A stretch of 64,000 nt of DNA, taken from positions 261,668-325,667 of the forward strand of contig OZ253585.1 in assembly GCA_965263145.1 (NCBI GenBank), in the 5' to 3' direction. Of the stretch, positions 1-27,430 are shown in pieces (the first letter of the stretch is position 1; every line of letters begins with the position of its first letter). The translations under genes and the position numbers were made by a program. The notes beneath the pieces were generated by a model. The model did no database searches. It saw only the letters and a list, made by a program, of their open reading frames with translations, and was not told where the DNA came from. This DNA is from Botrimarina sp. (GTDB lineage Bacteria; Planctomycetota; Planctomycetia; Pirellulales; Lacipirellulaceae).

Positions 1-1209
1 AAATTCCCCACTTCATCAAGCAGGTATATCACGCGTTGGTTGGTGCGATCTCGCACAAGAGCTTCCGCCGAAGCGGAGATAACCAGGTTCAGAAACTGAG
101 CCTGGCTCTTCAGCCGCTCAGGGGGAACCATGATGAAGACGACCATCGGTTCCTGCTTGAGTTCTGCCCAGCTAAAGTTATTCTCACTCACCAGCCGGCC
201 AACATGGCCGCCACTACTAAAGATTTTGACCGATCTAGTGGCCGTCGTGATCGCTCCAGAGAACTCTTCGGGACTACTCGCCATGAGGCTAAGTACGCTT
301 GAAGCGGATTCTGAGAGTGCGCCACCAAACGATTTACTCTCCGACGCCGCTTCCAGTAGCACGAGCATTTCATCACTACTACTCATCACACAGCGACGGA
401 GTCCAGGAAGAGTCACTTCGCCGTATTTGTCGAGTAGCCAAAGGATACAGGTGGTTAGCACCAGCCGAGCCAGATCATCAAAGTGCTGGGTTGTTCCGTT
501 TTGTTTGCTTGGCTCGACCCCTTGATGAAGAAGATGCGTAAACGTCTCGACATCTTCAATCAGGTTGGGGTCCGTCGGATCAAGATAGCCGGCAGGATTA
601 TGGTGAATGCTTTCGATCGGAATGCCAAGTTCTTCACTGAGCCGTTCCGCCTCACTGGCGATCACGACGACCCGATAGCCAAGTTCTCTTAGTCGTCTGG
701 CACAGACGCTATAGAGCTCACCTGAGACGTCAGTGACAATGTAAGACTGGAACCGATCCTTGGTAGGTCTGGGGGCTTCGAGTAAGTTTCGGATCACAAA
801 CGCGACCCCCTTCCAACTACCCGGACGTCCAGCTACGAGCACGGCAGCTTCTCCTGGGTAGCGAACGATCTTTTTGCCAATGCGGCCTAAAATAATCCCC
901 CACTCGCCTAGAAGGCCCGCCTTCTTAGCATCTTTCTGATCGCCTCGTTTAGCAGTCCCTTGGTTCTTTGCGTGGGAGGTGAGTTTTCTTTGTCGCCTGC
1001 GACGATCAGCTTGGTGATCAACCGCCCCAAGAAACCCAAAGAAGAAGAGTAGTGTCATCAACCCCGCAACCATCGCTCCTATCGCAGCTGGTTCTGAGCC
1101 TCCTTGGCTCTGATCGTAGAGGTAATAGGTGGCAGCTGCAGCTATGAGCAACATACATAGTTGACCAAGGACCGTCCGCGGAGCTTGGGTATTGCCTTGA
1201 GCACTCATG
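1..1209 (-). CDS. Type IV secretion coupling protein (VirD4/TraG/TraD-like). The N-terminus starts at 1209 and the C-terminus is cut by the window edge.
   Basis: Hand translation of the minus strand from the ATG at 1209 gives MSAQGNTQAPRTVLGQLCMLLIAAAATYY..., with two hydrophobic helices. Next comes a basic linker, then LVAGRPGSWKGVAFVIRNLL (Walker-A-like, matching the VirD4/TraG APTRSGKGVG-VIPNLL block), then YIVTDVSGE (TraG-family DPKGE-like). The ORF is absent from the track because there is no stop in the window. The small plus-strand ORFs at 36..692 are antisense to it. Confidence 0.7.
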
Positions 1210-1269
1210 AAAGTTCCTTTCTAAAGTTGTCGGTATCGATCTAGATAAAATGCTTGCGTAGCGTTATGA

Positions 1270-1668
1270 CTAGTTGGTGAGAGTTGTTTTGAAACTCACG
1301 ACACCATTTACTTCGTGATAGTCTTCTGTCGCCAAGAGTTCCCGTAGCCGGAGTGCTAAGCCCATCGCCGAGCACCCTTCTTCAGTAGCTAACTTCTCAG
1401 CAATAAGCCCTTCGATGTCAGCTTTTGGAAGCTGGCCATCGTTATCCGTAAGAAGCTTATCCATCGCTTGCTTTACCTGCCGCTTCTTAGGAGCCGGTTT
1501 ATTAGTTCCCTCTGCGGGAGTGCCAAGAGCTTTCAAGGCGGCGTTGACTTGACGCTTGGTCGATTTGGCATCGCTCAGGTCTTTTCTTAAGCTTTCAATG
1601 GTCACCTCAATTTCATTCAGCTGGGTTTGCAGCCCATCGCGTATCGCTTCTAAGGTTTTGTTTTTCAT
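1270..1668 (-). CDS. Hypothetical coiled-coil protein (132 aa)
   Basis: Intact ORF immediately downstream of the coupling-protein gene. Charged and alpha-helical, with no recognisable motif. Confidence 0.4.
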   Translation of the reverse strand: MKNKTLEAIRDGLQTQLNEIEVTIESLRKDLSDAKSTKRQVNAALKALGTPAEGTNKPAPKKRQVKQAMDKLLTDNDGQLPKADIEGLIAEKLATEEGCSAMGLALRLRELLATEDYHEVNGVVSFKTTLTN

Positions 1669-1716
1669 CGCTTCTGTTTCCTATTGAGAGAAAAGAGGAG
1701 GTTTCGTGAGATCCGT

Positions 1717-26095: not shown

Positions 26096-27120
26096 TGAGA
26101 ATTAAGCCTAAATTCGCATTGAGTAAGTTTGTACCTGGAATCAAAATAGCCATGCTAGAGATAGCAGTTGTTCTGTCAGGAATATTGCTCAGCGGTATAT
26201 CACTTGGCCAAACTTCACAGTATCTCAGCTCTAGCAAGTGGCAGGTTACCTACCCGATTGACCTACGTAAGCACTCAGGTTTGAAAGAATCGCATAAATC
26301 TGTCACGCAAGGTGGAGCTATTATTGCTGAATCGATTTTATCAAAGCACTGGCATGACAGGACAATTATTACTCTAAAGCAACGAGTTGATATTACTAAA
26401 GCATGGGATGTTGACTATTTTTTTACGTCTAAAAAAGAAGCGATGCTATGTAGAGCAGTGAGTCGGAGAGATGTAACTGAAATGGAACGTCTCATTGCTC
26501 AGGGAGCAGACGTCAATTTCATTGGCAAAGAGGGGATGACTTTACTTTACTGGTCATTTTTTATAACCGATGATCCAAGACCTTTTCATTGTCTTCTAAA
26601 ACATGGAGCAAATCCAAATGTCATCTGTAGGTTGGATAGAGATAGATGGTTATCAAATACATATGCAAATGAAGCAGTAGTGCACTTGGTTTCACTGGGA
26701 GTTTACAATCGGTTGTTTAAGGAAGTTTTCCAGTCCGGCGGAGATCCAAATCTACCATGTGAGAATGAATTCGAATATAAGAAGAATTCCCCATTATTTT
26801 TAATCAATCCACTGACTCCAGATTGTGCTGAGAGGCTAGAAGTGCTGTTGGCTGCAGGTGCAGACCTAAAGCAAAAAAACAAGCAGAATAATTTAGGTTT
26901 TTGCTATCGCATGCTTGTAAGCAGGAATGAGATTGGATATAAGACCGCTCTGCTTGCTTACAAGAATGGTGCAGATACTGATGAACTATTGCCTTACAAG
27001 AAACAAAAGATGAAGGCATTCGATATTCTTACATCGCCAGGATTTGAGAATGACCCAGAATCCATGGCCGAAGAAAGCTATTATCACCAGCTGATGGAAT
27101 ATCTTGACAGTCGCTACTAG
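26095..27120 (+). CDS. Ankyrin-repeat protein with N-terminal signal/TM anchor. Candidate periplasmic immunity protein.
   Basis: ATGA overlap with the lipase gene stop. N-terminal hydrophobic IAMLEIAVVLSGILLSGISLG. Ankyrin consensus blocks: ERLIAQGADVNFIGKEGMTLLYWS, LLKHGANPNV, LLAAGADLKQKN and LAYKNGADTD. Confidence 0.7.
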   Translation: MRIKPKFALSKFVPGIKIAMLEIAVVLSGILLSGISLGQTSQYLSSSKWQVTYPIDLRKHSGLKESHKSVTQGGAIIAESILSKHWHDRTIITLKQRVDITKAWDVDYFFTSKKEAMLCRAVSRRDVTEMERLIAQGADVNFIGKEGMTLLYWSFFITDDPRPFHCLLKHGANPNVICRLDRDRWLSNTYANEAVVHLVSLGVYNRLFKEVFQSGGDPNLPCENEFEYKKNSPLFLINPLTPDCAERLEVLLAAGADLKQKNKQNNLGFCYRMLVSRNEIGYKTALLAYKNGADTDELLPYKKQKMKAFDILTSPGFENDPESMAEESYYHQLMEYLDSRY

Positions 27121-27357
27121 AGGTTTAATAGCAGCCACATAACCAAAAAATTAGAGTGGTATCGCCACAGACTTAACACTCTGAGGGTGGACTCGGTTGA
27201 AGGAGGTTGACCAGCACCATGGTAGGCCTGCTAGTCTGACTTTGACTTATTGATTATATTTTCAGGGTGACCATATAGGTGACCGGCTAGCAAGAGAAGC
27301 TGGCGAGACTGTTAGCTGGGGGTCGTTAAGTCACAGCTAAGAAAGACTTTAAGGAAG

Positions 27358-27430
27358 TGCTCCCTTTAGGACTCGAACCTAAAACCTACTGATTAAGAGT
27401 CAGTTGCTCTGCCAATTGAGCTAAGGGAGC
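27358..27430 (-). tRNA. tRNA-Lys (anticodon CTT)
   Basis: The reverse complement folds canonically: GCTCCCT-TA-GCTC-AATTGGCA-GAGC-A-ACTGA-CTCTTAA-TCAGT-AGGTT-TTAGG-TTCGAGT-CCTAA-AGGGAGC-A. Acceptor, anticodon and T stems are perfect. CCA is not encoded. Confidence 0.85.

Follow-up and report, generated by a model that had tools for sequence, protein, structure and literature searches.

A probable composite genomic island at a tRNA-Lys gene of Botrimarina sp., containing a planctomycete MOBF/coupling-protein element

Integrative mobilizable elements (IMEs) and integrative conjugative elements (ICEs) that use a tyrosine recombinase insert at the 3' ends of tRNA genes, as ICEclc does at tRNA-Gly and PAPI-1 at tRNA-Lys. 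Here we analyse a stretch of 64,000 nucleotides from Botrimarina sp. (contig OZ253585.1, positions 261,668 to 325,667; the whole stretch is called the window and its own coordinates are used throughout), and in particular its left 27.3 kb, which ends at a tRNA-Lys(CTT) gene. With moderate confidence, we favour reading this part as a composite genomic island of three layers at a tRNA-Lys hotspot, with an IS5-family insertion sequence (IS) joining the second and third layers. The first layer, from position 1 to about 11.5 kb and continuing leftwards, would be the backbone of an IME. The second (11.5-22.4 kb) would fill the cargo slot of that element with restriction-modification, RelA/SpoT-DUF262 and ThuA/GMC genes, and the third (23.5-27.3 kb) would be the remains of a separate integrase-toxin-immunity islet at the tRNA-Lys 3' end.

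Like other IMEs and ICEs that insert in tRNA genes, the element and its relatives have a cargo slot, defence and restriction-modification cargo, strain-variable presence, atypical composition and (in the relatives) an integrase beside the tRNA 3' end. Unlike ICEclc and PAPI-1, the element has no recognisable type IV secretion system (T4SS) genes, the window copy is without an integrase or an attachment (att) repeat, and no sequence relationship to either of them extends beyond domain families. Closer counterparts are the Planctomycetes elements that combine a MOBF relaxase with a coupling protein. A survey of Planctomycetes genomes (bioRxiv 10.1101/2024.01.22.576637), in the part that we draw on, is confined to counts of relaxases, coupling proteins and genes of the mating channel. 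It reports 21 chromosomes with 29 MOBF relaxases between them, frequently accompanied by a coupling protein, and no mating-pair-formation system that is complete. The present element is similar in that TrwC lies beside TraG in a close relative, in its occurrence on chromosome-sized contigs and in the absence of a complete mating system, and the largest component of the island belongs to this barely described, already noticed class. To what that part of the survey gives, the window and its relatives add a conserved core, a Rep/primase module, a tyrosine integrase, junctions at tRNA-Arg and tRNA-Val, and a degenerate copy at tRNA-Lys. Among plasmids, TraG finds its best match on pPla86_1/pPla133 (28% identity; typed as mobilizable, MOBP). 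Plasmid pPla86_1 of Planctomycetes bacterium Pla86 is alike in having a TraG-type coupling protein and a relaxase with no mating channel, and it carries a tyrosine recombinase. It differs in that its relaxase is MOBP rather than MOBF, in that it is an autonomous plasmid encoding a ParA-like protein, and in that no further backbone gene is shared; a megablast search of window positions 1-12 kb against plasmids gave no match.

Strain-variable DNA at the tRNA-Lys gene

Several window proteins are 100% identical to entries on one contig of 3,812,209 bp, and the window is therefore chromosomal. Its right half encodes sulfatases, two DUF1559/N-methyl proteins, FecR, PEP-CTERM and dockerin proteins and an OPT transporter, and holds a cluster of four tRNA genes (Leu/Asp/Leu/Gly), a gene set typical of planctomycete chromosomes. 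The host, an uncultured planctomycete of the Pirellulales, is most similar to Lacipirellulaceae (Botrimarina, the only genus checked, falls in that family and order). Composition was judged against this right half, a reference of 36 kb. The tetranucleotide correlation of each 4-kb chunk of 1-28 kb with the right half was 0.52-0.74, and among the right-half chunks themselves it was 0.75-0.90, above every chunk of 1-28 kb. GC content is 0.41-0.455 across 14-27 kb versus 0.456-0.509 in the right half, so that the greater AT-richness noticed in an earlier, sequence-only reading of this DNA is real. As a test for island DNA, GC content spans 0.41-0.49 versus 0.47-0.50 and the tetranucleotide correlation 0.46-0.74 versus 0.75-0.90 for controls. 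Against this 36-kb reference, then, the island differs in composition from the host chromosome over its entire length, and the uniform composition that would have spoken for core chromosome was not found.

The sequence-only reading had proposed that the left 27 kb were an integrated conjugative or plasmid-like element ending at the tRNA-Lys gene. This gene was found by both ARAGORN and Infernal, intact and with its 3' end toward the island. Homologues of the gamma-glutamyltranspeptidase (GGT) gene beyond it, 97-98% identical, are present on two contigs of the European Nucleotide Archive (ENA), which we call L107 (ERZ26696107 contig_37, 283,858 bp) and L109. In the three strains the flanks are 97-99% identical and the DNA left of tRNA-Lys differs, L107 departing from the window left of 23511 and L109 left of 27326. 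To the left of its tRNA-Lys, L107 has a tyrosine integrase, a toxin of 2495 amino acids and a protein of 322 amino acids, and L109 has PLD/ResIII/helicase genes. Three contents at one junction make this an integration hotspot, with islands that differ between strains whose sequence elsewhere is 97-99% identical. Strain-variable DNA starting at a tRNA 3' end is what is expected of a tRNA-associated island, and the sister strains do not have the gene order that a conserved core region would share.

The third layer is delimited by the comparison with L107. Window positions 23511-29363 correspond to L107 positions 5872-11725 at 98.7% identity, and the match begins at the very base where the IS ends (23511), the IS cutting the toxin gene exactly. 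The L107 toxin has Toxin_R_bind_N, HemolysinCabind (RTX) and Phospholipase-like domains. The sequence-only reading had described a toxin/immunity-like pair here, and lipase-like and ankyrin-like open reading frames (ORFs) do occupy 23627-27120; since the first of them matches within the 2495-amino-acid gene of L107, however, this ORF of 822 amino acids is the last third of a toxin gene, and the TTG at which it seems to start is an artefact of the way ORFs were listed. The remnant has weak Lipase_3 and SA1320-family matches. Neither TraG nor Rep homologues were found on L107 among the matches listed, and that contig reaches about 48 kb left of its tRNA-Lys; the sister strain is therefore without the element at this locus. 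Hence the tRNA-Lys 3' end does bound foreign DNA in three strains, as had been proposed, but the 27 kb are not one element, the last 3.8 kb being a separate islet.

The IS, which had also been recognised from the sequence (its transposase is split in two ORFs, 22551-23500), is like members of the IS5 family in its two-frame DDE_Tnp_1_5 plus DDE_Tnp_1 arrangement, its length of about 1.05 kb, its short terminal repeats and a possible 4-bp duplication. It is unlike a simple IS5 insertion in that its terminal inverted repeat GGCCTTGT matches over 8 nt only and the sequences on its two sides do not adjoin in the sister strain, the left one having no counterpart in the L107 toxin gene, and it marks a rearrangement. 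One copy is present within the window. GAAT stands on both flanks (22456-22459 and 23512-23515), a pair that could result from a target preference together with recombination between IS copies, or could be a coincidence.

Near the junction, a GGTGACC-N5-GGTGACC direct repeat lies about 75-95 bp from the tRNA 3' end and is kept in L109 (about 3850-3875) despite the different island there. An analogous GTGTCAGA-N3-GTGTCAGA repeat lies at the tRNA-Arg junction of a relative, locus L083 (about 12470-12490). Both repeats are candidates for arm-type sites of an integrase. A tblastn search of the whole window with the integrase of that relative gave nothing below E = 0.8, and no window ORF had a Phage_integrase match.

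A family of elements integrated at tRNA genes

Window positions 1-9210 match ENA contig ERZ25074695 ctg332551 (42,458 bp; loci L081/L083) at 97.1% DNA identity, with more than 99% over 2-7 kb and lower values on either side. The window opens inside a TraG/VirD4 gene, as the sequence-only reading stated. The gene runs past the left edge, the full protein in the source genome has 559 amino acids (P0125), and the fragment is 98% identical to P0001, encoded on ctg332551. Past TraG, ctg332551 has three small genes and then, 1.65 kb on, a TrwC (MOBF) relaxase of 958 amino acids. TrwC also lies past TraG in L082 and L111, and we infer a relaxase just left of the window. On its other side, ctg332551 has a Rep-like gene, a tyrosine integrase of 404 amino acids and tRNA-Arg(TCT), followed by MazG, ABC-transporter and glycoside-hydrolase genes. 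The relaxase and integrase whose absence would have told against an integrated element are thus both found in a relative of 97% identity. A more distant relative, L084, has TrwC, KfrA-like and Rep genes, about 3 kb of Schlafen/AlbA_2 cargo, an integrase, tRNA-Val(TAC) and an aldose epimerase gene; it was the sole additional locus with a resolved tRNA junction in a metagenome scan with the Rep alignment. In intact relatives the Rep side leads into a variable cargo slot, followed by a tyrosine integrase that adjoins a tRNA gene at its 3' end. In both L083 and L084 the tRNA gene is encoded on the strand opposite to Rep (minus against plus), as it is in the window, so that the orientation of its element toward the tRNA agrees with the two relatives in which integrase and tRNA junction are visible. 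After 11526, where an integrase and a tRNA are to be expected, the window has 16 kb of other DNA.

Beyond 9.2 kb the KfrA/Rep module is a different allele from that of L083 (54-69% identity); the Rep gene is 69% identical to that of ctg332551 and the match stops at window position 11526. This mosaic divergence argues for recombination among family members, by which the Rep/integrase end is swapped. Two contigs at different tRNA sites have a backbone in common that, over 5 kb, is more than 99% identical, which indicates recent movement. As counted along 759-9210, mismatches to L083 number 6-9 per kb over 2-7 kb and 36-67 per kb at 1-2 kb and 7-9.2 kb. One metagenome, ENA sample ERZ25074695, contains both L109, which is 97-98% identical to the window chromosome, and the L081/L083 element at tRNA-Arg; these may come from one population with the element at another tRNA.

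By tblastn across L081, L082, L084, L085 and L111, the core of the family consists of p132, TraG, p113, p196, p89, TrwC, p134, p127, DUF3991-Toprim, the KfrA-like protein and a Rep, and the vWA gene and the gene for the 392-amino-acid protein are confined to closer relatives. Homologues of TraG or Rep occur on contigs of 0.5-4.8 Mb from Botrimarina hoheduenensis, Pseudobythopirellula maris and Aeoliella, and the family is widespread in Pirellulales. VirB4-type ATPases and other mating-pair-formation families were found neither among the window ORFs nor within 7-10 kb beyond TraG in L081, L082 and L111, and no mating-channel genes were seen in about 20 kb of these three relatives. With a core that has no recognisable mating channel, the family appears to consist of IMEs inserted at tRNA 3' ends and not of self-transmissible ICEs. 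Its layout fits that of an IME; the window copy has the coupling protein, has no integrase and would have its relaxase beyond the left edge. Of the earlier proposal, therefore, a transfer-related integrative backbone over 1-11.5 kb stands, but the conjugative part lacks support, no mating-pair-formation genes having been seen in the window or within 7-10 kb beyond TraG in three relatives. Contigs of about 22 kb carrying TraG in the Logan collection were considered as circular copies of the element and rejected, as L111 enters a large TPR gene and stops at the contig end.

Conjugation-type transfer in Planctomycetes is little known. The window and its relatives give such elements a structure: a conserved core, exchangeable Rep/integrase modules and integration at tRNA genes, resolved for Arg-TCT and Val-TAC. 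The slot between Rep and integrase collects defence cargo, and the window copy illustrates how elements of this kind decay. These observations should be useful for annotation and mobilome surveys and leave current understanding unchanged. It is a bold and rather improbable suggestion that the family moves between cells without a canonical T4SS, through a transfer apparatus unlike known ones or encoded by the host. If true, this would be the first native route of DNA transfer described for Planctomycetes, bacteria whose cell envelope is unusual.

Competing histories of the island

The history that we favour for the composite island begins with a mobilizable element that would have integrated in canonical orientation at tRNA-Lys, in tandem with a resident toxin islet. 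An IS5-associated deletion would then have taken out the junction between them together with the two integrase genes and some 1,635 codons from the start of the toxin gene. The window copy is probably immobile and locked in place, because it has no integrase and, if the frameshift described below is real, a broken primase gene. Several points weigh against this history or parts of it. The tandem integration is argued from two things, orientation and position; a repeat of the tRNA-Lys 3' region of at least 13 nt is not found within the window, nor are tRNA fragments within 1-27 kb. The element continues beyond the window, where its left end, a relaxase and any T4SS genes would have to be. The GAAT pair could be the target-site duplication of a simple insertion, in which case the left junction would have formed otherwise. 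The split in the Toprim gene may be genuine, making it a pseudogene, or may be an error of assembly or sequencing. Finally, the segment at 11.5-22.4 kb sits in the slot that holds cargo in L084 and is treated as candidate cargo of the element, though it may have been acquired separately. Most of its genes (restriction-modification, RelA_SpoT, DUF262, ThuA and the second GMC gene), like the IS proteins, are singletons in 90% clusters, which is weakly informative since GGT proteins that are 98% identical are also unclustered; the first GMC ORF as delimited is absent from the protein collection used for the clustering.

The main rival holds that the element, alone or within a larger island, had been inserted at another place with no tie to tRNA-Lys, and that recombination between IS5 copies, by deletion or inversion, brought it beside the toxin islet. 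We regard this as less likely. In its favour, the IS lies exactly at the breakpoint of homology and its left flank is unlike the sister strain, the 97% relative uses tRNA-Arg and not tRNA-Lys, and the window has no tRNA-Lys att repeat. Against it stands the canonical orientation of the element toward the tRNA, Rep on plus and tRNA on minus, seen also in L083 and L084. The Rep/integrase end is, moreover, a different allele (54-65% amino acid identity) from that of the tRNA-Arg element, for which a target other than tRNA-Arg is to be expected, and the window holds a single IS copy. A rival in line with the sequence-only reading, that one intact ICE runs from beyond the left edge to tRNA-Lys with the toxin pair as cargo and with integrase, relaxase, T4SS and second att all left of the window, would account for the orientation of the backbone as in intact relatives, the atypical composition throughout 1-27.3 kb and the junction between variable and shared DNA at the tRNA 3' end. 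It appears improbable to us, for both resolved relatives have the integrase between Rep and the tRNA, where the window has none, and the 3.8 kb next to the tRNA are common, at 98.7%, to a strain with no TraG or Rep among the matches listed. In that strain, moreover, the toxin gene is full-length and has a separate integrase next to it, whereas the toxin gene of the window is truncated at the end of the IS, and 7-10 kb beyond TraG in three relatives hold no mating-pair-formation genes.

A reading of the region as ordinary core chromosome, in which transfer-like genes are ancient fixed remnants and differences in composition are noise, can appeal to the ThuA/GMC oxidoreductases, sugar-oxidation enzymes with no tie to mobile elements, and to the small size (36 kb) of the reference for composition. 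We find it scarcely credible in the face of a backbone that an element at another chromosomal site, tRNA-Arg, matches at 97% identity (above 99% over 2-7 kb), of three strains with flanks of 97-99% identity that are entirely different left of tRNA-Lys, of the restriction-modification pair, IS and defence-type genes in the region, and of a composition that is atypical in every 4-kb chunk. The composite island, in which a mobilizable backbone with its cargo abuts the remnant of a resident islet, accordingly remains our preferred description, and the gene content, homologies, breakpoints and strain variability that it is built on were directly observed.

Backbone, cargo and neighbouring features

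Coordinates and family matches are collected in Table 1. All the genes named in the sequence-only reading were found where it had placed them, the DUF3991-Toprim gene being present on two ORFs, the KfrA-like match falling below cut-off, and the Rep-like, restriction-modification and defence genes all being found.

Table 1. Features of the window, with positions, strands and supporting matches
Feature	Position	Strand	Evidence or remark
Type IV coupling protein TraG/VirD4, N-terminal 402 codons	3-1208	minus	Pfam T4SS-DNA_transf 5e-22, TrwB_AAD_bind 8e-5
132-amino-acid protein (p132), directly upstream of TraG across the element family	1270-1668	minus	tblastn 47-55% identity in L082 and L111, same position
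vWA-domain lipoprotein	1717-3177	minus	weak Pfam VWA 2e-5; N-terminal LTGC lipobox
392-amino-acid membrane and coiled-coil protein	3225-4403	minus	family searches without match; 38% identical in L111
Divergent intergenic region	about 4404-4811		between the operon of the 392-amino-acid protein and the plus-strand block
Three-gene block, 200 + 218 + 711 amino acids; the last a polytopic membrane protein	4812-8187	plus	
DUF3991-Toprim primase-like gene, split	8184-9184	minus	ORFs 8435-9184 and 8184-8438; Pfam DUF3991 7e-6, Toprim_2 7.5e-8
KfrA-like protein	9228-9953	minus	NCBIfam NF038291 'plasmid replication DNA-binding protein' 2e-13, under curated cut-off
KfrA-Rep spacer, rich in inverted repeats	9954-10541		candidate operator or origin
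Winged-helix 'Rep-like' protein, 265 amino acids as annotated in the source genome	10617-11414	plus	Pfam HTH_36 3.4e-5
Type II restriction-modification: Eco57I-type N6-adenine methylase	11644-13215	plus	Pfam Eco57I 2e-15; PADLOC MTase_II 5e-131
BsuBI/PstI-family endonuclease	13212-14156	plus	Pfam BsuBI_PstI_RE 8e-63; PADLOC REase_II 1e-114
RelA/SpoT-like nucleotidyltransferase	14230-15207	minus	Pfam RelA_SpoT 5e-7; PADLOC PDC-S33 3e-9
DUF262 (GmrSD N-terminal) gene	15204-16268	minus	Pfam GmrSD_N 6e-22; PADLOC NsnA 6e-32
242-amino-acid predicted membrane protein	16743-17471	plus	family searches without match
ThuA-like gene and two GMC-family FAD oxidoreductase genes	18038-22414	plus	Pfam ThuA 4e-33, GMC_oxred_C 4e-17, 1e-13
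IS5-family insertion sequence	22460-23511	plus	transposase ORFs 22551-22943, 23090-23500; Pfam DDE_Tnp_1_5 9e-27, DDE_Tnp_1 5e-14
Truncated toxin pseudogene, 3' third (~860 codons)	23512-26095	plus	98.7% identical to L107 5872-8456
Ankyrin-like candidate immunity gene	26095-27120	plus	weak Pfam Ank; same 90% cluster as the 322-amino-acid protein of the sister strain
GGTGACC-N5-GGTGACC direct repeat	27266-27284	plus	one occurrence in the window, 0.08 expected
Junction of variable and shared DNA	27326-27356		L109 homology to the window and L107 starts at 27326, 31 bp past the tRNA 3' end
tRNA-Lys(CTT), intact	27357-27430	minus	ARAGORN; Infernal 73.7 bits; 3' end faces the island
GGT	27639-29363		57-63% identity to GGT of Botrimarina, Pseudobythopirellula, Aeoliella and Pirellulimonas

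In the backbone, the gene for the 392-amino-acid protein heads a minus-strand operon whose last genes are TraG and the presumed relaxase gene. The vWA gene, with a 65% identical copy in L111 and none in L082 by tblastn, is an accessory backbone gene of the closer relatives only. The intergenic region in front of the operon has the second-highest density of inverted repeats in the window (10-11 versus a median of 2, noted over 4117-4811); a putative control region, it may be an operator or a site resembling an origin of transfer. The plus-strand block that follows gave zero Pfam or PADLOC matches, nor did its 711-amino-acid protein have any in NCBIfam, and tblastn did not find the block in L082 or L111. 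It is specific to the window element and its 97% relative, and is accessory rather than core. A Walker A motif, looked for in the backbone proteins lacking a family assignment, was found in none of them. The primase-like gene is broken into ORFs of 249 and 84 amino acids by a 1-nt deletion in a run of C at 8465 and is whole (331 amino acids) in L081/L083. The low-coverage contig of L081/L083 conversely has frameshifts in the genes of the 392- and 711-amino-acid proteins.

The true start of the KfrA-like protein is probably Met62, and homologues occupy the same position in L082, L083, L084 and L085. The spacer between it and Rep, flagged in the sequence-only reading as palindrome-rich, has 14 inverted repeats with arms of six nt, the maximum of the window (median 2; reached by 0 of 300 shuffles), and contains the 16-nt palindrome TGCTGCATATGCAGCA at 10077. 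The Rep-like protein scores 24.0 bits against HTH_36, for which the cut-off is 25. It has 105 homologues, many on chromosome-sized planctomycete contigs, and in L082 and L111 its slot is filled by an RP-C replication initiator. Its fold is a generic winged helix; by this and by a sequence search of the PDB it is a candidate initiator at most.

In the cargo segment, the methylase and endonuclease genes are adjacent with a 4-nt overlap and make up a type II restriction-modification system of the BsuBI/PstI kind. The RelA_SpoT and DUF262 genes, the defence cassette of the sequence-only reading, also share 4 nt and may form an uncharacterised two-gene defence pair, for which they are candidates. 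The ThuA and two GMC-oxidoreductase genes at 18038-22414, not mentioned in that reading, are putative sugar-oxidation cargo of atypical composition; their segment has a GC content of 0.435 and a tetranucleotide correlation of 0.625.

When the same neighbourhood was sought in GTDB species genomes by way of GGT, the best relatives were 59-61% identical and had no tRNA-Lys beside GGT. A locus from Logan accession DRR496536 (L108; GGT 89% identical) was considered as an empty site and rejected, there being no tRNA-Lys and a different tRNA cluster. Around its GGT gene, tRNA-Lys, HEAT and Band_7 genes are all absent, tRNA-Tyr and tRNA-Pro stand in place of the Leu/Asp/Leu/Gly cluster, and GH127/GFO_IDH sugar genes lie on the left, a rearranged neighbourhood even for a relative this near.

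Right of GGT, the slot at 29363-31407 holds a HEAT-repeat gene in the window (29732-31291, minus strand) and a PcfJ-domain gene instead in both sister strains, with flanks 97-99% identical between strains. This is a second strain-variable site, 2 kb from the tRNA-Lys hotspot. Just outside the cluster of four tRNA genes, Infernal gave a tRNA-like match at 33007-33072 on the minus strand (55.3 bits, model positions 4-67 of 71), which ARAGORN called neither in the window nor at the sister loci; the match may represent either a pseudo-tRNA or a tRNA whose acceptor stem is unusual.

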